Source of the DNA: Squalus acanthias
Lineage: Eukaryota
Reading direction: 5' to 3'
Length of the DNA: 64,000 nt
Assembly (NCBI GenBank): GCA_030390025.1
Contig: CM059432.1
Span: 62,436,001-62,500,000, forward strand
Of the stretch, positions 1,533-62,700 are shown piece by piece; position 1 is the stretch's first letter; every line of letters starts with the position of its first letter. The position numbers and the translations under genes were made by a program. Below the pieces are notes generated by a model. It made no database searches and was not told the DNA's origin. It was given only the letters and a program-made list of their open reading frames with translations.

Positions 1533-1826
1533 TACAGAGAATTAAACTGAATTTACAGCACAGAAACAGGCCATTTGGCCCAAATGGTCTATGCCAGTGC
1601 TTATGCTCCACATTAGCCTCCTCCCACTCTACATACTTCATCTCACCCTATCAACATATCCTTCTATTCTTTTCTTGGTCATGTGCTTAACTAGCTTCTC
1701 CTTAAAGGCATCTATGCTATTCACCTCAACCACTCTATGTGGTAGCAAATTCCACATTCTAACCACTATCCGAGTAAAGAAGTTTCTCCTGAATTCTTTA
1801 TTGGATTTATTAGTGACTATCTTATG
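1533..1826 (-). mobile_element. CR1 LINE 3' fragment
   Basis: Reverse complement of CR1 ORF2 C-terminus (RNFFT..VVRMWNL) and 3' UTR. Confidence 0.65.
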
Positions 1827-1859
1827 TTTTTAAAACTAGCGGTCATAAATATAAGAACA

Positions 1860-4358: not shown

Positions 4359-5550
4359 AAGAATTAGGAGCTGTAGTAGGCCATACGGCCCTTCGAGCTT
4401 GCTCCGCCATTCAATAAGATCATGGCTGATCTTCTACCTCAACTCCACTTCCTCGCATGATCCCCATATCCCTTAATTCCCCTAGAGTCCAAAAATCTAT
4501 CTATCTCAGCCTTGAATATACTCAACGTTCAGCATTCACAGCCCTTTAGGGTAGAGAATTCCAAAGATTCACAACCCTCTGAGGGAAGAAATTTCTCCTC
4601 ATCTCAGTCTTAAATGGTCGACCCCTTATCCTGAGACTATGCTCCCTAGTTCTAGGCTCTCCAGCCAGGGGAAAAGACCTCAGCATCTACCCTGTCAATC
4701 CACCTCAGAATCTTATATGTTTCACTGAGATCACCTCTCATGCTTCATAACTCCAGAGAGTATCGGCCAAATCTACTCAATCGCTCTTCATAGGCAACCC
4801 TCTCATCCCAGGGATCAATCTAGTGAACCTTCGTTACACCGCCTCTAAGGCATGTATGTCCTTTCTCAGATAAGGAGACCAAAACTGTGCACAGTACTCC
4901 AGGTGTGGTCTCACCAAAGCCCTGTACAATTGTATTAAGACTTCCTTACTCTTGTACTCCAACCTCCTTGCAATAAAGGCCAACATGCCATTTGCCTTCC
5001 TAATTGCTTGTTGTACCTGCATGCTAACTTTCTGTGTTTCCTGTACGAGGACTCCTAAATCTCTCTGAACACCAACATTTAATAGTTTCTCACCATTTAA
5101 AAAAATATTGTTTTTCTATTCTTCCTACCAAAGTAAATAACCTCACATTTCCCCACATTATACTCTATCTGCCACCTTATCGCCCACTCACTTAACCTGT
5201 CTATATCCCTTTGCAGGCTCTTTGTGTCCTCCTCACAGCTTACTTTCCCACCTAGCTTTGTATCGTCAGCAAACTTGGATACATAGTACTCGGTCCCTTC
5301 ATCTAAGTCATTAACACAGGTTGTAAATAGCTGAGGCCCAAGCACTGATCCTTGAGGCACCCCACTAGTTACAGCCAGAAAATGACCCGTTTACCCCTAC
5401 TCTGTTTTCTGTCTGTTAACCAATCCTTTATCCATGCTAATATTTATATTACCCCCAGCCCCATGAGCACAGCAAACTTTTATGTGGCACATTATCAAAT
5501 GCCAGTTTGGAAATCCAAATATACTACATCCACTGGTTCTCCTTTATCCC
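4359..5550 (-). mobile_element. CR1 LINE 3' part, degenerate, tail-to-tail with preceding copy
   Basis: ORF fragments [21 protein letters not shown]; 3' UTR starts at 4359. Confidence 0.9.
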
Positions 5551-6616
5551 CCATAAGTGAAAACATCTTCTCTACGTCTACCCTTTCAAACCCCTTCATC
5601 ATTTTATCAGGCCATCCCTTAGTCTTCTCTTTTCTACAGAAAAGAGCCCCAGCCTGTTCAGTCTTTCCTGATAGTTGTGCCCTCTCAGTTCTTGTATCAT
5701 TCTTGTAAATCTTTTTTTTGCACGTTCTCCAGTGCCTCTAAATCCTTGCTGGAAATGTACCAATAGCCACAGTAAGAGTGCTTTTAAATCATTGTAATAG
5801 GAGTGCGTGCGGAAACTCACAAAAGAACTGCTGCTTTAACAAATATTTTACTTAACATGTAAAACTCACAGGGGGCTGAGAAAGAGGTTTAAACTACGAC
5901 AGCCAAAACAGTTCTACGCTCCGTTATTTGGAACCAAACATCGAAAGAGATGGATTGGGAGTGGCAGAATGTGATGTTACGTAGGAGATTTGAAGTGCTG
6001 TGTGATTATTCTCAGAGACCAGAGTTCACACCCAGAAGCCCCCATAAGAGTTCTCCACCTCAGTTATGACATTGTAGGGAAGTGTTGAACTGAGGTGCTG
6101 ACTTCCTCACATGGAGGAAGAAAGAGCGACCACAGCAAGTGACCCTGGGACTCTTTAATGCACCTTCGAACTGACATTTAGTGTGACACTGGCAGACTCC
6201 TGGGAGCAGGGCACCAGCCCACCCATACAGCTGGGAAATAATATGTAGTGCTCAAGACTATAAAAGCTTTATTAGAGGCAAAAATAATAAGAAAGAATGG
6301 ACAAAAGGATCTGCATTCATAGAGCACCTTATTACACCTCTTAAAAACAAGTCAAAGCACAGACTTTGCAAAGAAAAAATAATGAAAAGTTGCTGCACAC
6401 GTTCAGTGTTGTAGTATGACTCGCACAGACTCGGGAACGGGCTGTTTATTCATCCTTCTCTCAGTCACGAATATTGTTGTGTGGTGACCTCACCAATGGT
6501 GAAGGAATCATATTAAAAAAGATAAATATTAACACTTTATTGGAAGGCATTATTGAGATCCGCCAATTTGTAATTTATCCCCAAATCCAGATTATACAAT
6601 AAAATTCCACACAAAC

Positions 6617-6689
6617 CTGAATCTCCCGCTGCTGCTTCTCTTGCTTCTTTTCGAATGGCAAAATACCTTCTTTTCTTTTCCACTGGGAC
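6617..6689 (-). CDS. PRKDC: DNA-PKcs exon 22/23 (73 bp)
   Basis: Hand translation VPVEKKRRYFAIRKEAREAAAGDS; aag/gtttg. Confidence 0.92.
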
Positions 6690-7162
6690 CTTTAACAGGA
6701 CATTTAATGGTTTAAGAGAAGTGGCAGATCTTTCATATCATGATCAACTATTTCCCACACATTGCACTTTTCCCCTTATATTTTTGTAGTTTCCCCCCTT
6801 CTCAGTATGTTTTTCTGTGTACATATCAAGTATGGAAACAATGAAACTGGGTTCTCAAAGGGGTTTCTTTGTACAAGATTCCAGTACAATATTTATAATG
6901 ATGTATTGCCAAACTTCATTTTTTTTTCTTTCTAAGTTTTCTTTTCATCCTTTTTGTTTCCTTGATCTTCATTTTTCTGATGCATTATTTTTCTTGTTTT
7001 TTTTCCTCCTTCGTCACAGTCACTCCTAATTCTTCTTTCTTACTCCTCTACGCACAAACACCCAGATAAGCATGCAACAACACCAAGGCATTTTGACAGA
7101 AAATACACAAATCTATCACCCTCCGCACACTCTGATGTATTGTAGAAAGGACTACTACTCAC

Positions 7163-7228
7163 TTCAATCTCCACAGGAAAATTGTATGTGCGTTGGGCAT
7201 CGATCAGATTCTCAAAGATAAAGATATT
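7163..7228 (-). CDS. PRKDC: DNA-PKcs exon 21/23 (66 bp)
   Basis: NIFIFENLIDAQRTYNFPVEIE; cag/gtgag. Confidence 0.93.
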
Positions 7229-9450
7229 CTGTAAAAGAAAAATGATTTGAGAACTCCTGATAACGGCAAAAGCCATTCGCTGACTAGTCAGGAATACTGT
7301 AACAATTTACGGAAGTCAACAGAATGGCCAACAGGTTTTGCCAGTTGAGATTTCCATCCCCAAAGCAGCATTTATTGGAACATACAAGTTCATTTTTATT
7401 GTTTTAACCCTTTCCATTTTCTTCCCTTCCCCATTTCAAGGTCTCCCCACATAATGAACCATACCCCTGCTCAGTTGATGCTCATGCCTCACCACATAAG
7501 TCCATCACTCAGTGTCACTTAATGTAAGTATCCCAACAGACTGTACCCTAGTATCTCCCTGCTAGAATACTTCACGATTCTAATTGGCAGCTGTACTAAA
7601 ACACATAAATTTTATATAAATTCGGTCTTAAAATTAACTGCATTTTAACAATGGATACTGCTACTGTTCCATGCACATTTTTCAGGGGCCATACATGTTA
7701 GAAGACAGCCTTAAATTGGTGATATTTTTGTTTATATTCATATTGTTTTAGCTTGAAATGGTAGGGAATTCAATTTATTTACCACGTAGAAGAAACGACA
7801 AATATTTTTGCATGTTGGAAGCACCAATTTTAACATGCTCACAGAAAACATTTGAAAATCAAATAAGTTTTAACCACTTAATACTTGTATAAAACTAGTT
7901 GATCTTCTGTGGTGTTGCACAGGGGAATGAAGACCAAGTGTAGTCTTCTAGTGAAGCTTATATTATAGGGCAGCGGATAATTAGATCAGAGCACACAGAC
8001 ATAATTCAGTCATGTATTCTGCGCTTATTTTTATATTTCCAATACAAATTCCTATAAACTGCCTATGTAAACTTGTCATGCTGTAATTACACCCTTCCAC
8101 TAGCAGGTGGATGTAATTATAAATGTAGACATCATAATGGAAAAGGTTGATCAGAAGCACGTGCAAATGTAAGATCGTTACTATATTACGAGTAGATAGT
8201 TGCTCATGGTGAGTTAGAGATTTTGCTGATTTATAACAGTAAGGGTGTCTTTGTCATGTAGGGGATACATCAGGGACACTGATGTATAGTGACTGAACAA
8301 GTCAAATTCAATTTTTATGAAATTATATTCTGTGATTCTTACTAGTGCTTTGGGGATTTCATTTCACAACTCTTCCATTATTCTGCAAAAACTGTAAATG
8401 AGTGACTTTTACAATTGATATATATTCCTTTAATTGTTTTTAATTGTTACGCTTTACCATTTTTAATGCTGAGAATCCACAGCAAGAGAGTATGCTAGAT
8501 GCTCCAATTGGAGGTAGACATTTGGTATTTAATAGTATTGGAGAAGGAGAATGGGTTTCAGTCACCCTTGAAGGTTCTGCATTTTGCTAGTAAGAGCAGT
8601 AGTCCAGGGCTTTGATAGCACTGGGCAATGGTCCTGGGGTTTGGCAGAACTGGGGTGCAAGTCCTGAGTTTGACAGTACTGCAGAGAGGCAGGAAAAAAA
8701 TAGCAGCATGGGGGAGGGTCCTTTGATCTGGCATCACTGTGGAGAGGGAGCATGGGTTTTGGAAAGCAGAGCTGAGGTTTGCCACAATTGGGGTCTAAAT
8801 CCTGGTTTTAGTCAGTATAGAAGGGAGGGGTAGGATGTGGGCCTGACACTACTGGTGTGGGGGTCGATCCCATATGTGGCACTGCTGGTTTATAACTTTG
8901 CACGGCATCGCTGCAAACAAAGAATTTGGTGTTTTGTGATTAGTTCCTGGACGTGCATCTTTGTGTCTTTCGGTCTCTCTCTCTGCTATAAGAAAATGTA
9001 AACATTCTAATCACGAACCTTGGCACAGGCTGTAATGAGAGCTTTCATTTTTCTTGAAAAAAACAAATAAAATGGGGACAGGCTGTGTGCCGGTGTCCGA
9101 CAGCTTTTAGCAATTAGAATGTTTACATTTTCTGTCAACATAACATGCGTGATAACCAAGTTAGGTAATTTGAAAAATTAACTTAATTTCAATGAGAAAA
9201 GACACTCTCTCTTTCTTAAGCTTAATGCCTTCTGTTTAAAAAAAACACTCAGTCTAATTTTACCTGAATAAAGGTTTTGAAATTTGTCCTCTAGCATTTC
9301 TTCAAATAACTCATTAAAAACTTTTGAAAAATATTGCTAGAAGCTAAAGTTAAATACAATGGTACGCATGCAAACTGGCAAATTAGATATACTGCACATG
9401 CTCAGTGCACAATCCAAACACAGCTCAGTCACAGCCCTGGGCAAAAATAT

Positions 9451-37808: not shown

Positions 37809-40800
37809 CTGCAAGAGCAGAAGTAAACAACGTGAGATTTAGTACAAAGCTTCCATCTTCTCCCCTCCCCCCGATGTTGCATCATCAGAACAACATTTCA
37901 CTGACAGAACCAAATTTGCAGTGGACAACCACATAAAACATGATCCTGGGAATTATAAATTTACTGGCCTGACACCTTTATCAGGAAACATGCTGCAGTC
38001 TGTTATTAATGAAGCAATTGAAGAGTATAGGCAATACTAATAGGAAAACACGGGTTTAAAGGAAGATAGGACATGCCGTAGTATTTGCAGGAACTTTGAG
38101 GATATAACTGGAAAATTGGGGCAAAAATTGTAGGCCATTGTGGATATGTATTTATATTCTCCATTGCTAAATCTGATTATTAAACTGTTTTGAAATGATA
38201 TCTAATCCCCCTTCCAGCTCATGGAACTGATCTTCTTTCGCACTTTCTTAACCCTACACTGGCACTACTGTCACCTTGTCCCCTCATCACTATATGCTGG
38301 CTCATTGTTGATTCTCTACGCCTTTGCAGCCGACTGACCACGCTATCCTCTTCCAACGCCTCTCCTCCGCGGTCCTGCCCTTGCAAGTTTCCACTCTTAC
38401 CTATCCAGTCGCAGCAAGATAATCTCTTGTAATGGCTTCTCTTCCTGACCCCACACCGTTACCTCTGGAGTTCTCCAAGGAATTATCCTTGACCTCCTCC
38501 TGTTTCTCAACAATTGCTGCCCCTCAGTGACATCATCCGAAAACACGTCAGGTTCCACATGCACGCTGACCACACCCAGTTCTACCTCACCACCACCTCT
38601 CTCGACCCCTCCACTGCCTCGGTTTTCAGGCTGCTTGTCCGACATCCATTCCTGGATGAGCCGGAATTTCCTCCAAATTAAGCATTAGGTAAACGCGAAG
38701 CCATTGTCGTGAGCCTCCAGACAAACTCCATTCCCTCGCCAGCGATTCCATCCCCCTCCCTGGCCACTGTCTCAGGTTGAACCAGACTATTCGAAATCTC
38801 TGTGTCTATTTGATCCTGATCTGAGCTTCCAACCCTATATGCTTTCTATCACAAAGACCGCCGACTGCCACCTCCATAACATTGCCCATCATCACCCCTG
38901 CATCAGCCCATCTGCTGCTGAAACCCTCATCGATGCTTCTGTTATCTCCAAACTCAACTATTCCAATGCTCTCCTGGCCGGCCTTACATCTTCCACCCTC
39001 CATAAACTTGAGCTCATCCAAAATTCTGCTGCCCGTATCCTAATCGCACCAGGTGCTGCTCACCCGTCACCCCTGTGCTCACTGACCTACATTGTCTCTC
39101 AGCCCACCAATACCTCAAATTTAAAATTCTCATCCTAGTGCTCAGATCTCTCCATGCCCTCGCTGTTCCCTATCTCTCTAACCTTCTCCAGCTCCTACAA
39201 CGTAACATAAGAACGTAAGAAATAGCAGCAGGAGTAGGCCATTTGGCCCCTCGAGCCTCCTCCGCCATTTAATAAGATCATGGCTGATCTGATCTTGGCC
39301 TCAACTCCACTTTCCTGCCCGCTCCCCATAAACCTTGACTCCCCTATAGTTCAAAAATCTGTCTATTGATACCTTAAATATATTCAATGACCCAGCCTCC
39401 AAAGCTCTCTGGGGTAGAGAATTCCAAAGATTCACGACCCTCAGAAGAAATTCCTCCTCATCTCCGTTTTAAATGGGCGACCCCTTATTCTGAAACTATG
39501 CCCCCTAGTTCCAGATTCCCCCACGAGGGGCAACATCCTCTCTGCATCTACCCTGTCAAGCACCCTCAGAATCTTATATGTTTCAATAAGATCACCTCCC
39601 ATTCTTCTAAACTCCAATGAGTATAGGCCCAACCTGCTCAACTTTTCTTCATAAGTCAACCCCCTCATCTCAGGAATCAACCTACTGAACCTTCTCTGAA
39701 CTGCCTCCAATGCAAGTATATCCCTCCTTAAATAAGGAGACCAAAACTGCACGCAGTACTCCAGGTGTGGTCTCACCAACGCCCTGTACAGTTGTAGCAA
39801 GACTTCCCTACTTTTATACTCCATCCCCCTTGCAATAAAGGCCAACATTCCATTTGCCTTCCTAATTACTTGCTGTACCTGCATGCTAACATTTTGTGTT
39901 TCATGTACTAGGACCCCCAGATCCCTCTGTACCGCAGCATTCTGTAGTCTCTCTCCATTTAAATAATATTTTGCTTTTTTATTCTTCCTACCAAAATGGA
40001 TAACCTCACATTTTCCCACATTATACTCCGTCTGCCAAATTTTTGCCCACTCACTTAACCTATCTATATCCCTTTGCAGATTCTTTGTGTACTCCTCACA
40101 ACTTGCTTTCCCACCTATCTTTGTATCAGCAGCAGATTTGGCTACATTACACTTGGTCCCTTCATCCAAGTCATTAATATAGATTGTAAATAGTTGAGGC
40201 CCCAGCACTGATCCCTGTGGCACCCCACTAGTTACAGTTTGCCAACCTGAAAAATTACCCATTTATCCCGACTCTCTCTTTTCTGTTAGTTAGCCAATCC
40301 TCTATCCATGCTAATATATTACCCCCAACCCCGTGAGCTCTTATCTTGTGCAGTAACCTTTTATGTGGCACCTTATCGAATGCCTTCTGGAAATCCAAAT
40401 ACACGACATCTACTGGTTCCCCTTTATCCACCCTGCTCATTAGAACATAAGAAATAGGAGCAGGAGTAGGCCATTCGGCCCTTCGAGCCTGCTCCACCAT
40501 TCAATGAGATCATGGCTGATCTTCTGCCTCAATTCCATTCACCAGCCTTATCACCATATCCCTTGATGCCCTTACTAGTCAGAAATCTATCGACTTCTGT
40601 TTTGAATATACCCAATGACTGAGCCTCCACAGCCCTCTGGAGTAGAGAATTCCAAAGATTCACCACCCTCTGTGTGAAGAAATTTCTTCTCGTCTCAGTC
40701 CTGAATGGCCTACCCTTTATCCTGAGGCTGTGGCCCATGGTTCTAGACTCCCCAGCCAAGGGAAACATTCTCCCAGCATCCACCCTATCAAGCCCTGTAA

Positions 40801-48337: not shown

Positions 48338-51300
48338 TACAACAACAACAACTTGCGTATATATAGCACCTTTAACATAGAAAGCGCCCCAAGACATTTT
48401 GCTGGGGGGGGGGGGGGGAGATGAACAAAATAGATAAAGAAACAGACATCAAGTAATAGAGAGTTGGGAAGATAACCAACAGCTTGTTTGAAAAGATGGG
48501 TTTCAGAAGATTTTTAAAGATGGAGTGGTAAGGCCAAGGCAGTTGATTCAACAACAACAATTTGCATTTATATAGCGCCTTTAACATAGTAAAACATCCG
48601 AAAGAGCTTCCCAGGAGCGTTATCAAACAAAATTTGGCACCGAGCCACATAAGGAGATATTAGGGCAGATGACCAAAAGCTTGGTCGAAGAGGTAGGTTT
48701 TAAAGAGTGTCTTAAAGGAGAAAAGAGAGGTAGAAAGGCAGAGAGGTTTGGGGAGGGAATTCCAGAGCTTAGGGCCTCGGCAGCTGAAGGCACAGCCAAC
48801 AATGGTTAAGCGATTATAATCAGGGATGCTCAAGAGGCCAGAATTAGAGGAGCGCAAATATCTCGGGGGTGGGGGGGGGGGGGGTTGTGGGACTGAAGAA
48901 GATTACAGAGATAAGGAGGGGCGAAGCCATGGAGGGATTTGAAAACAAGGATGAGAATTTTAAAATCGAGGGGTTGCTTAACCGGGAACCAATGTAGGTC
49001 AGCGAGCATGGGCGGGGGGAAACAGGACTTGGTGCGAGTTAGGATACGGCCAGCAGAGTTTTGGATGGACTTAAGTTTATGGAGGGTGGAAGATGGGAGG
49101 TCGGCCAGGAGTGTGTTGGAATAGTCAAGTGTAGAGGTAACAAAGGCTTGGATGAGGGTTTCAGCAGCAGATGAACTGAGGCAGAGGCAGAGTCGGGCGA
49201 TGTTATGGAGGTGGAGGTAGGCGGTCTTGCGTTGGCATGGATATGTGGTTGGAAGCCCATCTCGGGCTCAAATACAACACCAAAGTTGCAAAAAGTTTGG
49301 TTCAGCCTCAGACAGTTGCCAGGGAGAGGGATGGAGTCAGTGGCAAGGGAATGGAGTTTGTGGTGGGGACCGAAGACAATGGCTTTGGTCTTCCCAATAT
49401 TTAATTGGAGGAAATTTCTGCTCATCCAGAACCGGATGTCGGACAAGCAGTCTGACAATTTAGAGACAGTGGAGGGGTGGAGAGGTACAGCTGGTGTCGT
49501 CAGCGTACATGTGTAACCTGATGTATTTTCGGATGATGTCACCGAGAGGCAGCATGTAGATGAGCAATAGGAGGGGGCCAAGGATAGATCCTTGGGGGAC
49601 TCGAGAGGTAATGGTGCGGGAGTGGGATGAGCAGCCACTGCAGCTGATTCTCTGGCTACGACTGGATAGATAAGAATGAAACCAGGCAAGGGCAGTCCCA
49701 CCCAGCTGGACGACGGAGGGGAGGTGTTGGAGGAGGATGGTGTGGTCAACCGTGTCAAAGGTTGCAGGCAGGTCGAGGACAAGAAGGGATAGTTTACCAG
49801 TCACATAGGATGTCATTTGTGACTTTGCTAAGAGTCGTTTCGGTACTGTGGCGGGCTGGATCCTGATTAGAGTGATTTAAACATGGAGTTACGGGAAAGA
49901 TGGGCATGGATTTGGGAGGCAACAGCATTTTCAAGGCCTTTGGAGAGGAAAGGGAGGTTGGAGATGGGGCAGTAGTTTGCAAAGACATTGGCTTTTTGAA
50001 GAGTGGGGGTGATGGTAGCAGATTTGAAGGGGAGGTGGACAGTACCTGAGAGAGAACCGTTAACAATATCAGCTAACTGGGGGCCAGGAAGGGATGGCCA
50101 ATGGTGGGACGAAGGGTAAGCAGGATGCACAAAGGCCAGAGTTGGAGAATCGAAGAAGGTCTATGAGGGTTCAGGATATTGCAGAGATAGGGTGGGACAC
50201 GGCTGTAGAGGGATTTTAAATTCAATGCACTGGGGGACAAGGTGCCAACGTAGGTCAGCGAGTATTGGGAAGATGGATGAGCAGGACTGAGTGCAGTATA
50301 CATTATGGATGGCTGAATTTTGGCAAGTTGGACTTTATGAAGGGTGGATACTAGAAAAAACTAGTCTAGATGTGATAAAAGCTTTGATAATGGTTTCAGG
50401 AGCAGTGGGGCTGAGGTAGGGGTGGAGGCAGGCAATTTTGCAATGGTGGAAGCAAATAACGTTTGAGGATAGGGAATGGGGGTTTGAAGTTCAGCTCTGG
50501 GTCGAATAGGATGCCAAGGTTCCGCGTGGTCTGACTCACTGAGCAAGTGGCTATGGCGAGGGAATGGAGTCAATGATGAAGGAGTGGCATTTATAATGAT
50601 GGCCGAAAATGATGGCTTCAGTCCTCCCAATATTCATTTGGAGGATATTTGGCACAATTTGATGTTGGGCAGGCAATCTGACAGCACAGAGGTGGTCATG
50701 GGGTCAAGGGAAGGAATGCAGAAGTAGAGCTGGATATCAGCTGTGCTTGGAGAGGATGGCCTTGAAGGGCAACATATAGATAAGGAAGAAGAGGACGTCA
50801 AGGGTAGATTCCCAGGGGACTCCAGAGGTGGTTGCATGGGGCTGAAAGAGAAATAATTATTGGAGATGTGCTGGCTGCGTTTGGACAAGTAGGAATGGAG
50901 CTACATGAGTGTAGTCCCAAGGAGCTGGACAACAGAAGGAGGCAATAGAGGAGGATAGCATGGCTGAGGAGGACAAGGAAGGAGGGCAAATCGCAGTTAC
51001 AGAGGATACCATTTATGACTTTGGCTAGAGTGTTCTTGAGACTATAAACAAGGACTGAAGGGGTTCGAACAGGGAATCTTGGGAGATTTGACTATGGAGC
51101 CGGGAGGTAAAAAAATATTCAAATATCTTAGAGAGAGGGGAAGTTACAAATGGGGTGGTATTGGAGAGGATACATCACGGGTGGATTTTTTTTTGAGGTG
51201 GGGTGATAATAGCGGTTTTGAAAGACGGACAGTGCTTGAGCATAAAGGACTCATTAGTGTCAGGAAGTATGGGGTCAGGAGGGTAATTGAGTGACTAAGA

Positions 51301-51700
51301 GCTGAGTGAAGAGGAGAGCAAGAGAGCAGTAAATGGGTTGCATGGAAGAGATGAGGTTAGAAAGGGCAGGCAAGGAAGATGGAAGAGAAACTGCAAAGTG
51401 ATAAGGATTCAGAACGAGACTGGAGAGAGGTCTGTGGCAGGGTAGAGAAAAGAAAGCAAAATAAGTGGCAGAAACAGCTGCACGGATGGTCTAAACCTCA
51501 GAGACAAAGAAATCCCCATGAGCTCTTCACACTTGGTATTGGAGGTGAGTGTTGAGGGAGAGGGACAGAGGTTTGAGCAGGCAGTTTATCAGAGAAATGG
51601 GGCTGTGGGTAGCGCTAGTCTCCCATGATGATCCTGGATTGGAGGATTTGGTTGAGGAGAGTGAGACACGTGGTCGTACCAAACTGGATTTCGAATGACT
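48338..51700 (-). mobile_element. Cluster of L2 LINE copies (best preserved 48548-50090, older relics flanking)
   Basis: LLVLDL..FDTVDH, VPQGSILGP, HMYADDT, PISNLPFLSK. Confidence 0.8.
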
Positions 51701-52496
51701 AGACCAATTGTTGTGGTCGTGTTTGCAGCCCTGTGACTTAAGGGTGCGTACTGGGGGATGGGAGAGTGAGGCTAGAAGCACAACTATTAACATTTGCCGA
51801 AAAGCACACCTCAGCCTCAGTCCTCGAACAGAACTGCACTACGAATTAATGCAAATGAAACAAGAGGGAGATGTACTTTCTGTGAAAATCTATAGTTTAT
51901 ATATATGCTTAATGCCAACTTTGGAGCTTGCAATTTTAGAATATTTACAGAAATTGTTTTGTGCGTTGCTCTAATTTTTACCATTGAAAACATCTAACAA
52001 TCTGTCAAATCTTTTCACAATCATTTTAAAGAATGACTGTTTTAAAATGGGTTTTTCAACACAAGTGATAGCAGTACTCAGTATATATGAGGAATAAAAG
52101 CCACCTGGTCATTTGTATTTCAACAAAAGGTAAAGACTTTAAAATAAAGTAAATTTTCAGACTGTAAATAATAAACAACAATTTCTCACAAATGTTTTGT
52201 TTTAAATTGTGAAGTGATAAGTCTTCTACAATTAAGAAAATGACAGGTGAGTGTATCTCAATATATTTTGACTAAAGATGATGATATAAGCTCCAAACAA
52301 TTTGATTTTAATGAGCACTTGTAAAAGTTTAGGCAAAATGATTTTCAATGCAAGTCATAGAGCACTCCCATATGGAGTTACCTTACACAAATTGTTCAAC
52401 TCTGCTTCTAGGTACAATACATTGGTAAGGATTTGATTTTGGTCCAGATATGAAACTATCTAAATTAAATAAATGAAAGGTCCCAAATCGGTTTAC

Positions 52497-52723
52497 CTGA
52501 ATTCTCTGTATAAGCTGTTAAAGGCAAGGGCTGCCCCCAGTCGCTTGAACGTATTGGGATGAAGAGCAAGGCTATAGAGTCTCTTGAAGAGTGATTTTGT
52601 ATTTACTGGACTCTTCTGCTGCTGCTGTGGGGTTGTCTGCTTTATGGACCACCTAAGGAACTCTTGAACACAGTGCCCACAGAAGTCTCTCAGAGTACTG
52701 TCCACTGGATCCACAATGCCATC
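52497..52723 (-). CDS. PRKDC: DNA-PKcs exon 4/23 (227 bp)
   Basis: [16 protein letters not shown]...[34 protein letters not shown]; tag/gtaaa. Confidence 0.97.
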
Positions 52724-53454
52724 CTAACAAAATTAGATATTTGTTTTCAACTTTCAGAACAAAAACAACACTGAGCTACACTGCAATCTGTTTTTGGTCA
52801 AAGCATTGCCCAGTAAATGTAAGCCACGATTCCCCCATCACTGGCTGAAGAATGTAACACAACTTATGGAGGTGTACTTCCACCTGTACTACTGCATTAG
52901 TTCTGTGTCCCAAACACTGTAGCATGAAGATCAGTTCTGACCACTGTGATTCAGCATCAACTGTCAACGTTTAAAAAAGATCGGCCATTTCTCAGTTACT
53001 GTTCCTCCTCTTCTGGATATACATTCAGTATTTAAAAATCTTCAGACATTTTAATAAGGAAATAATTACTTGCCAGTGTCTTAACAAGTAATAAATTAAT
53101 TTGGAAATTTATTTCAATATCCTCCAGCCCTTAGAAAAGCAACATTTAGTAGACAACACGATCAACAGTTAAATACAGAAAGACAAAAAGGAAATCTGTA
53201 AATGATTAAAAACTTTGAAATAAACATCTGAAATTTGTAAACATCCAACATTACTGAGCTGCCTGGTTCATTTCTAGTCATGTAATTCCCTTTAACAAGA
53301 CTGTTTACAAAGTTTTTGGTCTCCTGGCTTTTATAAGCAAAAATACTTCAGTCGTATGTGGGCCAAGACAGATGTTTACAATCACTCTGCTTACAGGGAA
53401 TTAAAGATTGTTTTGAGTGCTCAAATACTAAGAACGTAAGTGAACAATTGTTAC

Positions 53455-53562
53455 CAGAATAGCTTCCAGCATCGCCACTGTATCCCGACTTTCAAATTTC
53501 CTGTTGTTAGTGAACCAATGGATAAGTTGCATAACAAGTGGTTCAAACAACTGACTGGTTAC
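53455..53562 (-). CDS. PRKDC: DNA-PKcs exon 3/23 (108 bp)
   Basis: [36 protein letters not shown]; tag/gtaac. Confidence 0.95.
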
Positions 53563-53763
53563 CTACATATAATTAAAAAATACACACAAAGAGTTATTAT
53601 ATTAAGACTCAATCTCTGCATAAACCTAACATGGTGTGGACCTGTCCTGAACAATCACATTAACACAACAGCAAAATACTGCGGATGCTGGAAAACTGAA
53701 ATAACAACAGAAAGCGCTGGAAAAACTCAGCAGGCCAGGCAACATCCGTGGAGAGAGAAACAG

Positions 53764-53800
53764 AGTTAACGTTTCAGGTCGAAGACCCTTCGTCAGAACT
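53764..53800 (-). ncRNA. Minimal type I hammerhead ribozyme motif, copy 1
   Basis: AGUU CUGACGA A GGGUC uuc GACCU GAAA CG UU AACU. Confidence 0.75.
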
Positions 53801-53902
53801 GAGAAAAAAAGCAGGAAATGAGACAGATGAAAAAGCAAAATAACAACAGAAAACGCTGGAAAAACTCAGCAGGCCAGGCAACATCCGTGGAGAGAGAAAC
53901 AG

Positions 53903-53939
53903 AGTTAACGTTTCAGGTCGAAGATCCTTCGTCAGAACT
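53903..53939 (-). ncRNA. Minimal type I hammerhead ribozyme motif, copy 2
   Basis: AGUU CUGACGA A GGAUC uuc GACCU GAAA CG UU AACU (one stem II mismatch). Confidence 0.65.
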
Positions 53940-55801
53940 GAAAGAGCAGGAAATTAAACAGATAAAAATGCAAGGGGGAAGCTGGGGGGCTCCATCTCTG
54001 GGGATAGGTTATTGACCAACATTCACTACAAGCCCACTGACTCCCACAGCTACCTGGACTACACTTCCTCCCACCCCGCCTCCTGTAAGGACTCTATTCC
54101 CTTCTCCCAGTTTCTCCGTCTCCGCTGCATCTGCTCCGACGATGCCACCTTCCATACCAGTGCTTCCGACATGTCTTCCTTTTTCCTCAACCGAGGATTC
54201 CCCTTACCGTGGTCGACACGGCCCTCGACCGTGTCCGTTCCATCTCCCGCACTTCGCCCTCACCCCTGCCCCTCCCTCCCGGAACCACGATAGAGTTCCC
54301 CTTGTCCTCACCTTTCACCCCACCAGCCTCCACATTCAACGGATCATCCTCCGTCATTTCCGCCACCTCCAACGTGATCCCACCATCAAATGTATCTTCC
54401 CCTCACCTGCCCTTTCAGCATTCCGTAGGGACCGCTCCCTCCGAGACACCCTAGTCCACTCCTCTATCACCCCCAGCACCCCTTCCCCTTCACCCGGCAC
54501 CTTCCCGTGCAAGCGCAGGAGATGCAACACCTGCCCTTATACATCCCCCCTTCCCACTCTCCAGGGCCCCAAACACCCCTTCCAGGTGAAACAGCGATTT
54601 ACTTGTACTTCTTGCAATCTAGTATACTGTATTCGCTGCTCACGATGTGGTCTCCTCTACATTGGGGAGACCAAACGCAGATTGGGTGACCGCTTTGCGG
54701 AACACCTCCGTTCAGTCTGTAAGGGTGACCCCGAGCTTCCGGTCGCTTGTCATTTTAATTCACCGCTCCACGCCCACTCAGACCTCACCGTCCTCGGCCT
54801 CTTGCATTGTTCCACGGAAGCTCAGCGTAAGCTCGAGGAACAGCACCTCATCTTTCGTTTAGGCACTTTACAGCCTTCCGGACTCAATATCGAGTTCAAC
54901 AATTTCAGATCATAACCCCGGCCCCTACCACATATGTATACATTTTATCCACTCTTTTGGTCCGTGCCTTTTTCCTTTTTTTTTCTCTCTCTCTCCCCCT
55001 ACGGCAGCTGTCTCTCATTCTGCCAGCATTTCACACCTCACCTTTTGTTTCTTAACCTGTCCCATTACCATCTCGTCTTGCCTTGAGCATCTCTTAATGT
55101 CTCTACTTACCATAGACCCCCCCCTTTTGTTCTTTTATTCCTCCCCCCAGCTTCCCCCTTGCATTTTTATCTGTTTAATTTCCTGCTCTTTCAGTTCCAA
55201 CGAAGGGTTTCGACCTGAAACGTTAACTCTGTTTCTCTCTCCACGGATGTTGCCTGGCCTGCTGAGTTTTTCCAGCGTTTTCTGTTGTTATTTCGGATTT
55301 CCAGCATCCGCAGTATTTTGCTATCTCCGATGAAAAAGCAAGTTTGGAGGCTGGGGGAAGGAATAAAAGAACAAAAGGGGAGGTCTGTGAGAAGTAGAGA
55401 CATTAAGAGATACATCTAGAGCCATCTTTTGTTTCTTAACCTGTCCTATTACCATCTCGTCTCGCCTTGAGTATCTCTTAATGTCTCTACTTCTCACAGA
55501 CCTCCCCTTTTGTTCTTTTATTCCTTCCCCCAGCCTCCAAACTTGCTTTTTCATCAATCACATTAACATGTCACCTACTCAGGGTATATACAGTACACAC
55601 AAGGAAAATATAGAAGGAAAAGGAGGCCACTCCTCTCTGCAGGCCCCTTGCAAGTTGCATCATTGTGGATTCTCTCCAGCTTGTTAACCACAGAGTGAAT
55701 TACCACATGCAAATCTTCACAGCAGCTACAATTGTGAAATTGTGAAAGTTAATAATTAATCAATCAACGTACTCCTACATTCAGGCCCATAGCTTTCTTA
55801 C

Positions 55802-55948
55802 CTTATCCACATCACAACCGAGACGGAGTAAGACTGGATACATGCGTTTGTTCAGCTTGTACATTGTTTCTTGCTGTCCTTCAGGGATCTGAGATCCTTT
55901 TCCCAGCATATAAGCAACCACACTATGCAGCAGTTCACAAGCTGCAAC
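55802..55948 (-). CDS. PRKDC: DNA-PKcs exon 2/23 (147 bp)
   Basis: Hand translation [49 protein letters not shown]; cag/gtaag. Confidence 0.95.
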
Positions 55949-56488
55949 CTGGCAGGATGTATTATTTATAAAAAAAGTAGTTTTAACATATTAAAAACAT
56001 GAAGAAATGTTTTAAAGTTCAGCAGTGTCATCAAAAACATTGACAAATTAAGAAATCTGTAACTATGGAGTGGCTACATAACAATCTCTTGCCTGAGACA
56101 ACACATTTCCAACATGCTCACAGTGCCTCATTTTCAGTTTATGAATTGGAAAGTAAGTTTACTGCATCCAAAAAGTTAGGAAGCAATTTATAAAACAGAC
56201 TTTAAAATATGAATAAAATGTAAGAGATAACAATCTAACTACATTATAAGTGGTTAACTAATGTAGCATTTTATGATCGTAAGTACAGGTTGGAAGAAAC
56301 ACAAACATTTCTGGTCGATACAACGTGGCAACTATCGAGAAAGTGGCATATTACTCATGTAGAGGCTATGTTGCAAGAAGAGAGTTATGGGAGCAGAATG
56401 CACTCTAACACGACAAGCTTTCCAGTAGGAATATCGCATCTGACCAGGAACATCGTATAAAATATGGACGAAGAGAATGTCGGCTTAC

Positions 56489-56652
56489 CTTCGTCTGTCG
56501 GTCACTGGCAGAAAGCGCAAGTTCGGAGATGCGCGGTAGGAATGAATCCAAGTATATGACGGGTTTCATGTCTGCGAATGGTACTGCAAAACTCAGTGGC
56601 CTCTCTGCCACCCATGCAACACACTTCTTCATCATTTCCTCAGAAGAAGCAG
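56489..56652 (-). CDS. PRKDC: DNA-PKcs exon 1 of 23 in window (164 bp)
   Basis: [13 protein letters not shown]...[36 protein letters not shown] matches DNA-PKcs; tacag acceptor, gtaag donor. Confidence 0.95.
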
Positions 56653-56706
56653 CTGTACGATTCAAGTGGGAATACATAAGCATTTCTTCAATATACTGTA
56701 TTTTAT

Positions 56707-57665
56707 CATAGAATCATAGAAAGTTACAGCACGGAAGGAGGCCATTTCGGCCCACCGTGTCCGTGCCGGCCAACAAAGAGCTATCCAGCCTAATCCCACT
56801 TCCCAGCTCTTGATCCGTAGCCCTGCAGGTTACAGCGTCCCAAGTGCACATCCAAGTACTTTTTAAATGTGGTTAGGGTTCCTGCCTCTACCACCCTTTC
56901 AGGCAGTGAGTTCCAGACCCCCACAACCCTCCGGGTGAAAAAATTTCCCCTCAAACCCTCTCTAAACCTTCCACCAATTACGTTAAATCTGTGCCCCCTG
57001 GTTTTTGACCCCTCTGCTAGGGGAAATAGGTCCTTTCTATCCACTTTATCTTGGCCCCTCATAATTTTATACACCTCAATAAGGTCTCCCCTCAGCCTCC
57101 TCTGTTCCAAGGAAAACAGACCCAGCCTATCCAGTCTTTCCTCATAGCTAAGATTCTCTACTCCTGGCAACATCCTTGTAAATCACCTCTGTACCCTCTC
57201 TAGTGCAATCACATCTTTCCTGTAATGTGGTGACCAGAACTGCACGCAGTACTCTAGCTGAGGCCTAACTAGTGTTTTATACAGTTGAAGCATAACCCCC
57301 TGCTCTTGTATTCTATGCCACGGCTAATAAAGGCAAGCATTCCGTATGCCTTCTTAACCACCTTATCTACCTGGCCTGCTACCTTCAGGGATCTGTGGAC
57401 ATGTACTCCAAGGTCCCTTTGTTCCTCTACACTACTCAGTGTTCTACCATTTAATGTGTATTCCCTTTCCTTATTAGCCCTCCCCAAATGCATTACCTCA
57501 CACTTCTCCGGATTGAATTCCATTTGCCATTGTTCTGCCCACCTGACCAATTTATTGATATCTTCCTGCAGTCTACAGCTTCCTTCTTCAGTATCAACCA
57601 CACAGCCGATTTTAGTATCATGTGCAAACTTCTTAATCATACCTCCTATATTCAAGTCTAGATCA
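56707..57665 (-). mobile_element. CR1 3' fragment
   Basis: ORFs 56790-57173 and 57269-57721; same subfamily as 11092-12123. Confidence 0.9.
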
Positions 57666-58194
57666 TAAGTATCTAGATTTATAAGTAACTTATTTTTGAA
57701 TGAAAATTGAAAATAATACATTTCAAAATGTACTTTAATGATAGCATGTAGCTCCTTTCCTAAAGACTATTAATGTGGGCTAGAGCCTCTCTGACTGTTA
57801 AGGAATTATTTCAATGCTTACGCTTAGCATTTTCCAGCAGCAGAATCCATTTTGTAGATGTTTTACAAAATTACATAGTAATTGCAACATGGAAACAGGC
57901 TGTTTGATCCAACCTTCACATGAACAGCAGTCCTAATCCTCTGTGTCTGCCCTGTTCCCACATGCCTATGTTCTCCTTTCCTTCACAAAATGAAGTATTA
58001 CCTACTAAGGGTCTCTTCATCCTCATTCTTTGAACAAAATTTAGCCTCTACATATAAATGGCCATCGAGTCATCCAACAGACATTTATACTTACATGCAG
58101 CATTGCCTTCCAATAGTCACAATGGGCACTTCATTGAATTTGGCGTCAGCTTCACACTTCTTAAATAATGCAACATCAGTCCACAATACACCAA

Positions 58195-58910
58195 GGGTTA
58201 GAAATTCGATGCCTTAGCGCATCCGGGGGGCGATAATGGGGCGCTAATGACTTTCCGCCCGGGCGCGGCGATGTTACCGCCGCCCACGAAATTCACCTGC
58301 CGGTTTTCGGCGGCGGTAAACCCTAGCGACACGATCTCCTGCGCCCAGAGATTCTGATGTCACCCCGGTAGCGCCCTGGACTCGAAATTCATTTCCGCCC
58401 CTTGCAGCCAGGCGAAAACACCGACAGCTGCAGGAGACATTGATTGGGGACGATAATTAAAGGCGAGGTGGCCGAGGTAGGTGAAAAAAAATCTGAAACG
58501 CTCCTTCCGGTTTTTTTTCTTTCTTCGTCAGCCATCAATCATACGGCACTCTGCTGCAGTGCAGCGGGCTGATCGGGCCAGATCCCAGCTGCTGTCGGGG
58601 ACCAGGTAAGTTTTGACCTTGCAAAGCCTGCAGTGATGGCCCTTCCCTTTAAGGGAAGGAAGGAGCCTTCCAATGTGGCAGCGCTGCACAGCCCATTGTA
58701 CAGCGCTGCACACCTACCGCCCCACCTACTGCGCTCCAGCAATGAAGTGGAGCGCTTGATTTAGCGCTCCACTTCCTTCCTGAAGCGCTAAACCGAATTT
58801 ATTTATTTATTTATTTATTTTTAAAGTTGAGACCCATGAGCGTCTGACGCTAATTTTCTCAACTTTTAAAAGTTAGCACCCCAAACAGGGCTATAATGAC
58901 TTTCTCCCCC
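58195..58910. mobile_element. PIF/Harbinger-like MITE, CpG-rich
   Basis: TIR gggttagaaattc / gactttctccccc, TSD caa/caa. Confidence 0.65.
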
Positions 58911-59734
58911 CAAGAGTTGTATGTGAGAAAAATCTGAAAATCTTTGCAGATCTTAAAAAGTCAGCTACTGGCATCAACTACAGCCAAAGGAAAATCTGAT
59001 TGGAAAAGATTCAAACAAGGCACATGGCCTCAACTGACCAGTATTGAAGGCACAAACAAAATAAATCTATCTGCATTAATCATTAAATTAAAACCATTTT
59101 GAAAATTTAAAATAATCTCTGCAAAAGAACCAGAAACAAATACCAGTTAAACAGACTGTAAGGACTTTATCCTATGTGCAAAGGGAAGATAAAGGACTGC
59201 TGCCATCAACACGAATGGTTCAGAATGAAGGTGTATACACAGTGGAGAAGAGCCCCTGACCAAGATGCTCCCTGTGTAATGCAGATGTCTTAAAAGGCCA
59301 GCATCCTAGGTGTTATCCACTGTTGGGTGGAGACATGGATGATGAATGAATTGGAGTTCATTTACAAAAATTAAACTGACTACAGTAATTATTAATGTGG
59401 TATATGATGAAAGATAGGATACTTGGAATCCTACTTTCAAGATGACAAAAATTAGGGAAAAGTCAGTCTATATAAAAGCAATTTCTTAAAAGGAATTACT
59501 TGAACTTTAAAAAAGAATGTGAGCACAAGCTGCATAGGCATCAAATTTTGAGGGACATCCACCACTTCTGGCCAAGGGGGAGGTTGGGAGGTGGGTTCCT
59601 GCTCCCAGGAATTCCTAGTGCTTTTCAGTAACTGGTCTTAGAAAGTGACTAAGAACTGGGAATTACTCTCTCACTAACATTCCCTTCCTCACTGTGGGAA
59701 GCATATGGCTTCCAGTTGGCACATCCTCACATTT

Positions 59735-62700
59735 AAGAACATAACATAAGAAATAGGAGCATGAGTCGGCCATTTGGCCCTTCGAGCCTGCTCCGCCATT
59801 CAATTAGATCATGGCTGATCTTCTACCTCATCTCCACTTTCCTGCACTATCCCCATATCCCTTGATTGCCTTAATATTCAAAAATCTATCGATCTCTGTC
59901 TTGAATATACGCAACAACTGAGTCTCCACAGCCCTCTGCGGTAGAGAATTCCAAAGATTCACCACCCTCTGAGTGAAGAAATTTCTCCTCATCTCAGTCC
60001 TAAATGGTCGACCCCTTATTCTGAGACTGTGACCCCTGGTTCTAGACTCCCCAGCCAGGGGAAACATCCTCCCTACATCTACCCTGTCAAGCCCTGTAAG
60101 AATTTTGCATGTTTCAATGAGATCACCTCTCATTCTTCTAAACTCTAGAGAATATAAGAACATAAGAAATAGGAGCAGGAGTAGGCCAATTGGCCCCTCG
60201 AGCCTGCTCCGCCATTCAATAAGATCATGGCTGATCTGATCCTAACCGCCAATCTACTATCACAGAACCATCTCCTGAACCTAACAGAATTGGACACACG
60301 AAATAGGAGCAGGATCAGGCTACACGGCCCCTGGGCCCGCTACGCTACCCACAGGGCCATGACCGATCCGAACCTAGACTCATGTCCAAATTCCTGCCCG
60401 CTCCCCGTAACCCTTAATTCCCTTTACTTCTAGGAAACTGTCTATTTCTGTTTTAAATTTATGTAATGATGTAGCTTCTACAGCTTTTTGGGGCAGCTAT
60501 AGGCCCAGCTACTCAATCTCTCCTCATAGGACAATCCCCCCATCCCAGGAACCAGTCTGGTGAACCTTCATTGCACTCCCTCTATGGCAAGTATATCCTT
60601 CCTTAGGAAAGGAGACCAAAACTGTACACAATACTCCAGGTGTGGTCTCACCAGGGCCCTATATAATTGCAGTAAGACGTCTTTACTCTTATACTCAAAT
60701 CCTCTTGTAATAAAGGCCAACATACCATTTGCTTTCCTAATTGCTTGCTGTACCTGCATGTTCACTTACAGTGATTCATGTACAAGGACACCCAGGTCCC
60801 TCTGAACACCAACATTTCCCAATCTCTCACCATTTAAAAAATACTCTGCTTTTCTATTTTTCCTACCAAAGTGGATAACTTCACATTTCTCCACATTATA
60901 TTCCATTTGCCATGTCCTTGCCAACTCACTTAGCCTGTCTATATCCCCTTGAAGCCTCTTTGCATCCTCCTCACAACTTACATTCCCACCCAGCTTTGTA
61001 TCATCAGCAAATTTGCTTATATTACATTTGGTCCTCTCATCCAAATCATTGATGTAGATTGCGAATAGCTGAGGCCCAAGCACTGATCCTACCCCAATAG
61101 TTACAGCCTGCCAACCCGAAAATAACCCGTTTATTCCTACTCTTTGTTTTCTGTCCGTTAACCAATCCTCAATCCATGCTAGTATATTTCCACCAATCCC
61201 ATGAGCCCTAATTTTGTTTAATAACCTCTTGTGTGACACCTTATCGAAAGCCTTCTGAAAATCCAAATACACCACATCCACTGGTTCCCCCTTATCCATC
61301 CTACTAGTTACAACCTCAAAAAACTCTACAGATTCGTCAACACATGATTTCCCTTTCATAAATCTGTGTTGACTCTGCCCAATCCTATTATTTTCTAAGT
61401 GCCCTGTTACTACGTCCTTAACAATAGATTCTAGCATTTTCCTGACTACTGATGTCAGGCTAACTGGTCTGTAGCTCCGCATTTTCTCTCTCCCTACTTT
61501 CTTAAATAGTGGGGTTACATTTGCTACCTTCCAATCCGCAGGAACGGTTCCAGAATCTATGGAATTTTGGAAAATGACAACCAATGCATCCACTATCTCT
61601 ATAGCCACCTCTTTTAAAACTCTAGGCTGTAGGCCATCAGGTCCAGGGGATTTATCAGTTTTCAGTCCCATTAATTTCTCCAGTACTTTTTTTTTTTACT
61701 AATGGTAATTTCTTTCAGTTCCTCATTCTCGCGAGACCCTTGGTTCTCCACTATTTCCGGGAAGTTTTTTGCGTTTTCTTCCGTGAAGACAGACACAAAG
61801 GGCTCGATTTTCCAAGCCCCGTGGAGGCGGGTTTGGAGGCAGGAAAATTGCAGATTCGGGGGGCACGTACCCATCCCGCCCCCAACCCGCCTCCATCCCT
61901 GAAGTGTGGGCTGCCCGACGGCTCCAAACCACGCCAAGTTAGCGAGGCGGACCGTTGGTCTGCAGGGCTTGGAGAGGTCGAGATGTCCGGTGTACAGGTG
62001 AGTGATGGGTGCATGAGTGCAGAGGTAAGTGTGTTTGGTGTGTGTAAAGTGTTTTAATAAGTTTTACTTACCTTTACTTTCTCCTCCAGGCTTCCTCCCT
62101 TCAGTTCTCGGGAGTCCCTCAGCTCACCGGCACAGAAAGCAGAATGGCCGCTGAACTGTCAAAAGCTGCAGCCTCTGCTTTCTGGTCTGGAGAGCTCTCT
62201 AACTGAGTCTGAGTAGAAGGACTCAAGTTAGAAGACAGATTGTCAGTGTTTGCCAGCTTCACAGAGCTGTCAAACGCTGATATTTCATCTGTCAAAAGCT
62301 CTTGACAGATGAAATGTCAATTGCTGACGTCACCAGTATCCAGGTGTCCCTTAATTGGCCTGCTGAGCCCGCTGGGCGGGCTTAACAAGGTCAATCAAGG
62401 GAAAGTAGCGTGGGTTGGCCACAAATCGATGGAGGCGGGACTACAACCCAAAAAGTGGGAGTCCCGCCTCCATCACGTCCCCATTGACAAAAATCGAGCC
62501 CAAAGTATTTGTTTAATTTCACTGATACTTCCTTATTCCCCATTATAATTTCTCCTGTCTCAGCCTATAAGGGACCCACATTTACTTTTCCTAAGCTTTT
62601 TCTTTTTACATACCTATAGAAGCTTTTACAGTCTGTTTTTATGTCTCTCATATTCAATTTTCCCTTTCTTTATCAATTTCTTGGTCCTCCTTTGCTGAAT

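Follow-up and report, generated by a model that had tools for sequence, protein, structure and literature searches.

In the window (the whole 64,000-nt stretch of DNA analysed here), two hammerhead ribozyme motifs lie on the minus strand within an intron of PRKDC, in the sense of the gene. An initial annotation had read them as a pair, brought into this position by inversion of an element's terminal repeats, that might cut the nascent RNA. If this were true, a minimal Penelope hammerhead would act on the host pre-mRNA of an essential DNA-repair gene. The locus raises two questions: where did the pair come from, and can it cut? Our answer, which we hold with good confidence, is that the hammerheads are the ends of two nested Penelope-like elements (PLEs) at a recurrent 13-bp target and that the pair is likely an inert passenger in the PRKDC intron.

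The exon downstream of the intron (53455-53562, minus strand, phase 0) had been assigned to PRKDC, and a 36-residue match to DNA-PKcs residues 979-1014 in human numbering (E 1e-14) bears this out. Translation places the upstream exon, which we take to be the counterpart of the human PRKDC exon, at 55802-55950 (minus strand), with an exact 3′ end at 55802, the donor GTAAG and an approximate 5′ end. The intron runs from 55801 to 53563 and measures 2,239 nt, of which the insertion makes up 1,889 nt. Its 3′ end (53563-53651, minus strand) is host-derived and carries the true acceptor AG at 53564-53563; the nearer hammerhead cut site lies 205 nt ahead of this 3′ splice site, close to the earlier estimate of about 200 nt.

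Both motifs are Penelope-type minimal hammerheads in PRKDC sense, as had been proposed. Hammerhead 1 (53903-53939) and hammerhead 2 (53764-53800) have CUGACGA from 53935 and 53796 and GAAA from 53914 and 53775, respectively, all on the minus strand and 139 nt apart. Stem I is AGUU/AACU in both, and the cleavage nucleotide U17, within the triplet GUU, falls at 53907 and 53768; the core of a minimal type I hammerhead (CUGANGA, GAAA, NUH) is complete in each. GUU is a weaker cleavage triplet than GUC. The described palindromic stem III is present, but its usable part is ACGU, since the outer A and U of AACGUU are the core nucleotides A14 and U17, which in hammerhead numbering should stay unpaired. 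Likewise, the stem II hairpin has 5 bp in hammerhead 2, but a G-to-A change in hammerhead 1 (GGAUC vs GGGUC) leaves either 3 bp or a mismatched stem. In both motifs stem II is closed by G10.1-U11.1 instead of the G10.1-C11.1 usual in minimal hammerheads.

In helices I and II, 95.3% of 297 cells are paired, compared with 8-44% in slid controls. In a covariation test on 33 rows of this young family, 237 of 500 shuffles reached the observed score, that is, there was no excess; the sole varying pair was 10.1-11.1 (A-U in 18 rows, G-U in 13, G-C in 1 and another combination in 1). An Rfam scan of 50000-60000 returned no hammerhead family at E values up to 10, its best matches being hairpin look-alikes of an inverted repeat at 55329-55555.

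The layout of the insertion indicates that the pair arose through nested insertion of two elements, A and B, and not through one inversion. The proposed inversion holds for the upstream motif, which lies in an inverted arm of element A, but the downstream motif belongs to element B, which was already in gene sense. The whole insertion spans 53666-55554 and is flanked by a 14-bp target-site duplication (CAATCACATTAACA; left copy 53652-53665, right copy 55555-55568, plus strand). Along the pre-mRNA it starts with the inverted arm of B (55413-55555, plus strand, 143 nt), followed by 85 nt from the 5′ part of B (55329-55413, minus strand) that end in the 13-bp sequence TTGCTTTTTCATC (55341-55329). 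Element A then follows in reverse, as (i) its tail and pLTR (together 55143-55328, plus strand; the pre-mRNA carries them in antisense, with 97% complementarity to the unit of hammerhead 1), (ii) its 3′ UTR, (iii) the end of its ORF (53990-54915, plus strand), 5′-truncated and frameshifted, with the RT thumb region, a CX4CX2C linker and GIY-YIG, and (iv) its inverted pLTR arm (53839-53989, minus strand), which has no tail and contains hammerhead 1. At the pLTR end of A the 13-bp sequence stands again (53826-53838, minus strand), and the remaining B closes the insertion with the 3′ part of its pLTR (53700-53838, minus strand), which is the second 139-nt unit and holds hammerhead 2, and its tail (53666-53699, minus strand). 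Element A thus interrupts B between two copies of the 13-mer, and its arm ends such that the hammerheads stand 139 nt apart.

In the sequence of events that we favour, element B would have entered first, in gene sense, duplicating 14 bp of its target, and element A would then have landed inside B and duplicated 13 bp. A GIY-YIG endonuclease may have nicked both strands of the B site about 13 nt apart, and each nick may have primed reverse transcription of a different RNA; the two arms of A differ in their subfamily core, which suggests two separate RNA templates. The inverted arm of B itself terminates in a third copy of the 13-mer (55543-55555), against the host duplication. Two-step nesting in its simple form does not account for this copy, which is a hint of a coupled event. 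In the pre-mRNA, the stretch 55329-55555 also folds into a perfect hairpin of 86 bp around a 57-nt loop; it resembles a miRNA in Rfam, below threshold, and is a possible editing or small-RNA substrate.

By these and the following features the insertion is an EN+ PLE with minimal hammerheads. The ORF fragment in the window matches GIY-YIG at E 7.7e-4, below the Pfam curated cut-off, and is 96.9% identical to a full-length copy elsewhere in the genome (L154). That copy is 3.2 kb long, with direct pLTRs and a single open frame of 998 codons in which RVT_1 (E 3.8e-6) and, C-terminally, GIY-YIG (E 0.028) match, both below the Pfam curated cut-offs. The 3.2-kb direct tandem is found in L154 and in a further copy, L155. 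The pLTRs of the family are direct or inverted with an optional tail of 30-40 bp, and 15 other insertions have target-site duplications of 9-16 bp. The linker, CKRRRCNTC, matches by eye the CX2-5CxxC linker motif in the available text of PMC8557442, which, on the motif only, points to Neptune and not to Poseidon. In L154 the first ATG of the long frame (1683-4676, minus strand) lies just downstream of the hammerhead, so that the tail encodes the first codons, as in other PLEs. A separate element (L157, G000:C284:262500-268500) has CCAACGA cores at both of its ends and long internal tandem repeats, inserted directly after the tail-less pLTR end.

The insertion is recent. A contig of 2,071 nt, present in two DNA-type runs, aligns over 52900-53665; its match breaks off with the final base of the duplication, and the following 1,163 nt do not match the element. 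In a third run, a 1,874-nt contig stops matching at 53650 and continues for 905 nt without element match. The three relatives, identified by organism labels, differ from the window at 12-23 positions over about 750 nt. Judged from these left-flank contigs, the insertion site appears empty in all three, and, on the evidence of the same flank, the insertion does not have the conservation at the orthologous site that marks a host-domesticated intronic ribozyme. Since the insertion is recent and apparently absent from relatives, there is no sign of host retention. A 235-nt contig under a fourth organism label, from a run tentatively taken as RNA, reaches from 53466 to 53700 and covers both the exon boundary and the left junction. 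The insertion is therefore not an assembly artefact of one data set; the bridging contig shows its presence in a second data set, not expression or lack of splicing.

Inserted DNA in this position might affect the gene without any catalysis, and a non-catalytic effect on splicing is the more plausible host effect when set against cleavage. Here the insertion would mildly alter PRKDC splicing, with an acceptor-like site in the pLTR at 53800-53799 as a possible competitor of the true acceptor; the long hairpins might in addition attract A-to-I editing. Each pLTR has a branch-point-like YUNAY, a pyrimidine tract and a CAG that ends exactly at helix I, the same layout being found upstream of the motif in most untruncated copies. 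In the available text of PMC4209133 and PMC2377424, the intron of D. virilis Penelope likewise ends at the 5′ end of helix I. The acceptor-like AGs of the window stand at 53800-53799 and 53939-53938 (minus strand), with 16/17 and 14/17 pyrimidines compared with 11/17 at the true acceptor, and splicing to either would at once run into a stop in phase 0 (TTC TGA). The first of these sites is looped out of the predicted duplex described below, and the insertion accounts for most of the intron. Against such an effect, tens of thousands of these pLTRs are tolerated genome-wide, and a strong effect would likely have been removed, as PRKDC is expected to be under purifying selection. We consider an alteration of splicing unlikely; in the preferred reading of an inert passenger, the intron would be spliced at the untouched host acceptor. 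Among 30 consecutive copies (L018-L047), about 10 lose family sequence within a few bases of the splice-like point, often at the centre of an inverted pair (by eye).

How unusual is such a pair? The intact-core pattern has 60,257 matches in the 3.7-Gb genome against 104 for the reversed control, and two tighter patterns have 15,736 and 1,491; the motif is far above chance only because it belongs to a high-copy repeat. With 60,257 copies, a sense motif in an intron is routine, and the close same-strand pair is the uncommon part. An opposite-strand motif lies within 1.5 kb at 10 of 30 consecutive motif loci (three pairs being counted from both sides), a same-strand motif within the same distance at none of the 30 and at 3 of 30 B loci. 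These same-strand counts (0/30 and 3/30), together with the variation of unit 1 from locus to locus, led us to reject two readings of the tandem, as a pLTR trait of the whole family and as a travelling retrozyme.

The copy of the motif in the own sense of A (55193-55228, plus strand) has the core CCAACGA, just as had been claimed, and belongs to a subfamily. Genome-wide, CCAACGA has 27 exact matches and 1,400 within one mismatch, and 71 of the 73 one-mismatch rows among the matches listed read CCGACGA. This U4C subfamily may have as many as about 1,370 members, among them full-length copies of 3.2 kb whose open frames are long (L154 and L155), so the window copy likely lost its G5 through CpG decay. 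A U4C core can keep some activity in a viroid. The spread of the subfamily suggests that the canonical ribozyme core is not needed for mobility. Among the 100 matches listed for the intact-core pattern, the cleavage triplet is GUU in 95 and GUC in 5.

The 13-bp sequence at which A entered B recurs as a junction elsewhere in the genome. Junctions at TTGCTTTTTCATC were found at 16-17 loci in all (L001, L108-L116, L134, L144-L146, L150, L152 and L153), compared with about 0.02 expected by chance for 2,179 target copies if insertion is taken as uniform. A search with a floating offset, used so as not to select only junctions like that of the window, placed 10 of 12 matches at the same base (3 of them with an extra T); of the other two, one was the same site with a substitution and one was unrelated. 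The next 14 junction offsets gave no matches. A tailed version of the junction gave 8 one-mismatch matches and no exact one. A separate search for left junctions with tailed inverted arms gave 10 matches, 8 of them at the site's end. Six new loci came from these 8; 2 of the six are perhaps duplicates, and 3 lack a right junction within 1.5 kb. In unselected B copies the site is intact (30/30 downstream, 28/30 upstream). The 13-mer was also considered as a natural RNA end of B and rejected, as 30 of 30 sampled copies continue through it.

To compare whole insertions, 10 kb was retrieved at each of 10 loci; the junction was present in 9, and the tenth (L117, an 82% match without junction) was excluded from the counts. 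The left copy of the 13-mer is complete at 5 of these 9 loci, partial with microhomology at 3 and absent at 1. Their inserts are all different, varying in subfamily and ranging in length from about 60 to 2,030 nt. We regard it as highly probable that the recurrent landing base in the B pLTR is a targeting hot spot, and we infer that the GIY-YIG endonuclease prefers the B site and cuts it with a stagger of 13-15 nt. In the available text of PMC11167929, an Anolis element nicks and extends both strands in vitro, and its own pLTR is proposed there as a possible target; in that of PMC6765202, PLEs insert into or beside existing copies. In the literature that we searched (Repbase, Dfam and most subscription journals lay outside its scope), we found no report of a comparably base-precise Penelope site in sharks.

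A recurring junction could also arise if one composite master element, or the template switches of a single reverse-transcription event, had been copied to many loci. The right junction is nearly identical at all loci, a third copy of the site ends the other arm of B in the window, and the two unplaced loci that may be duplicates would fit such copying. The inserts nevertheless vary not only in subfamily and length but also in their 5′ junction and in whether they have an inverted arm, and most stand between two copies of the site, as independent staggered cuts would give. A single copied source is improbable on this evidence. Under the targeting hot spot that we prefer, one base has received about 16 independent insertions, staggered by 13-15 nt and with arms copied from different templates, which would provide a defined DNA substrate for work on the endonuclease. 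The landing site bears on target choice by Penelope elements and on the origin of their tandem and inverted ends.

Several observations touch on what the endonuclease may recognise. AAAC and (T)GTTT stand on either side of the hot-spot site; as an inverted pair, they might fit a putative dimeric endonuclease. The target-site duplications of the 15 other insertions gave no clear target consensus. The target at one locus (L038) resembles the B site. Two unrelated insertions, L032 (G000:C1:1410046) and L064 (G000:C1:106988392), share the same 3′ flank, with a target that starts TTGAGAAGTG, which suggests a second hot spot inside another repeat.

Several known systems can be set beside the insertion. 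The minimal hammerheads of PLEs reported by Cervera and de la Pena in 2014 (PMC4209133, available text) have in common with the window the core, a short helix I, an extra nucleotide before stem II, a palindromic 15.2-16.2, location in the pLTR, mostly dispersed single copies and opposite-strand pairs nearby. The window family differs from them in having G10.1-U11.1 or A-U instead of the conserved G-C, in U17 (95 of the 100 matches listed), in its large U4C subfamily and in its copy number, against 2,000-9,000 for the other genomes in that report. Insertions of EN+ PLEs described in the accessible parts of PMC3846280 (Pen2a_Av), PMC8557442 and PMC11167929 (Poseidon-Ac) share 5′ truncation, a head-to-head inverted arm, an optional 30-bp tail, a target-site duplication, secondary insertion into another Penelope and cleavage with extension of both strands. 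What sets the present case apart from them is that one base of one subfamily's pLTR has been reused at about 16 loci.

Two further comparisons concern the pair itself. Animal non-LTR retrozymes (bioRxiv 10.64898/2026.07.22.740005; PMC7229834) are built, in the text available, from two or more pLTR-derived units of 51-972 bp that follow one another and each hold a complete hammerhead, as here, and the window pair likely falls within the working definition of a retrozyme in the first of these sources. Its units, however, come from two elements through nested insertion, not from tandem amplification, and the pair has not spread as a unit: unit 1 varies in subfamily and length and is bracketed by the target duplication. 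Intronic host ribozymes, namely the HDV-like ribozyme of CPEB3 and the intronic hammerheads of amniotes (PMC6765202, available text), also place a sense motif near a splice site in a host intron, but they are single-copy and conserved, whereas the window pair is recent, repeat-derived, minimal and apparently absent in close relatives.

Can the pair cut? The pair is likely inert because a mirror copy of hammerhead 1 is predicted to lock this motif up in a long duplex. The copy lies in the antisense arm (55322 to 55143), which is transcribed 1.15 kb before hammerhead 1 and can form a duplex of -288 kcal/mol with unit 1 or of -271 kcal/mol with unit 2; whichever unit it takes, the other is left as a single minimal motif. 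When the intron was folded from 55800, the minimum-energy structure placed 34 of the 37 nt of hammerhead 1 within the arm duplex and paired the arm's end with the B tail, looping out unit 2. A partition function over 55600-53600 gave a mean pairing probability with the arm of 0.91 and probabilities of at most 1e-5 for the dimer helices. The arm would thus close onto both unit 1 and the tail, and hammerhead 2 would remain a solitary minimal motif unable to form stem III. The pair had been called dimer-competent and possibly able to cut nascent PRKDC RNA, unless folding were to show both motifs paired with the complementary copy at 55143-55322. In silico, hammerhead 1 is sequestered by exactly this copy, which is predicted to be enough to abolish the dimer, and such cleavage is unlikely. 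RNA-binding proteins or A-to-I editing could open the duplex.

The dimer register does allow stem I and stem III to be drawn, and both cores are intact. The dimer fold nonetheless lies 23-27 kcal/mol above the ensemble when the arm is left out, and 17.6 kcal/mol above it if only the two modules may pair, values that are uncalibrated, as are those of 15-26 kcal/mol at other loci. Computed without an active-dimer control, and from nearest-neighbour models that ignore tertiary core energy, these energies rank the folds and do not prove inactivity. Competing UCAG/CUGA and GAAACG/UGUUUC helices cover the core.

Reports on related ribozymes are in line with the predicted inertness and describe them as slow or protein-dependent. 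In the available text of PMC4209133, single minimal PLE motifs did not cleave and dimers cleaved weakly, and in that of bioRxiv 10.64898/2026.07.22.740005, one of nine Xenopus dimers cleaved, that one being very active, while about 44% of copies overlap introns, which is below expectation. The Anolis ribozyme (PMC11167929) cleaved only with the element's protein, and no RNA-seq ends were seen there. A point against inertness comes from PMC11856399, in which a fast engineered intronic hammerhead lowers expression up to 20-fold in zebrafish; real activity at the PRKDC locus would matter accordingly.

A broader reading is that the self-targeting hot spot keeps making 139-nt dimers which, with the element protein as chaperone, cut and circularise, giving birth to retrozymes, and that the PRKDC pre-mRNA is cut too. 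If true, hot-spot dimers would be a concrete birth route for animal retrozymes; we think this full chain highly improbable, and far less probable than the hot spot by itself. We give very little credence to the idea that the double hammerhead folds on the nascent PRKDC RNA, perhaps aided by protein, cuts twice, frees a possibly circularising 139-nt RNA and lowers or alters splicing of the next exon: its intact cores, correct dimer register and 139-nt spacing, and the reported activity of some PLE and Xenopus dimers and of the engineered zebrafish hammerhead, are outweighed by the antisense arm that is made first and predicted to sequester hammerhead 1, by a dimer fold that even without the arm lies well above the ensemble (uncalibrated) and meets competing helices over the core, and by the stem II mismatch of hammerhead 1 and its weaker triplet.

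The window contains other repeats besides the two nested PLEs. LINE-type fragments, with APE endonuclease and RT or with RT alone, lie at 1746-4367 (plus strand), 39441-40262, 57269-57766 and 60766-61695 (all minus strand); the first is near full length, with one stop. A short GC-rich inverted repeat with 26-nt arms and a 6-nt loop stands at 58731-58788, in the next intron.
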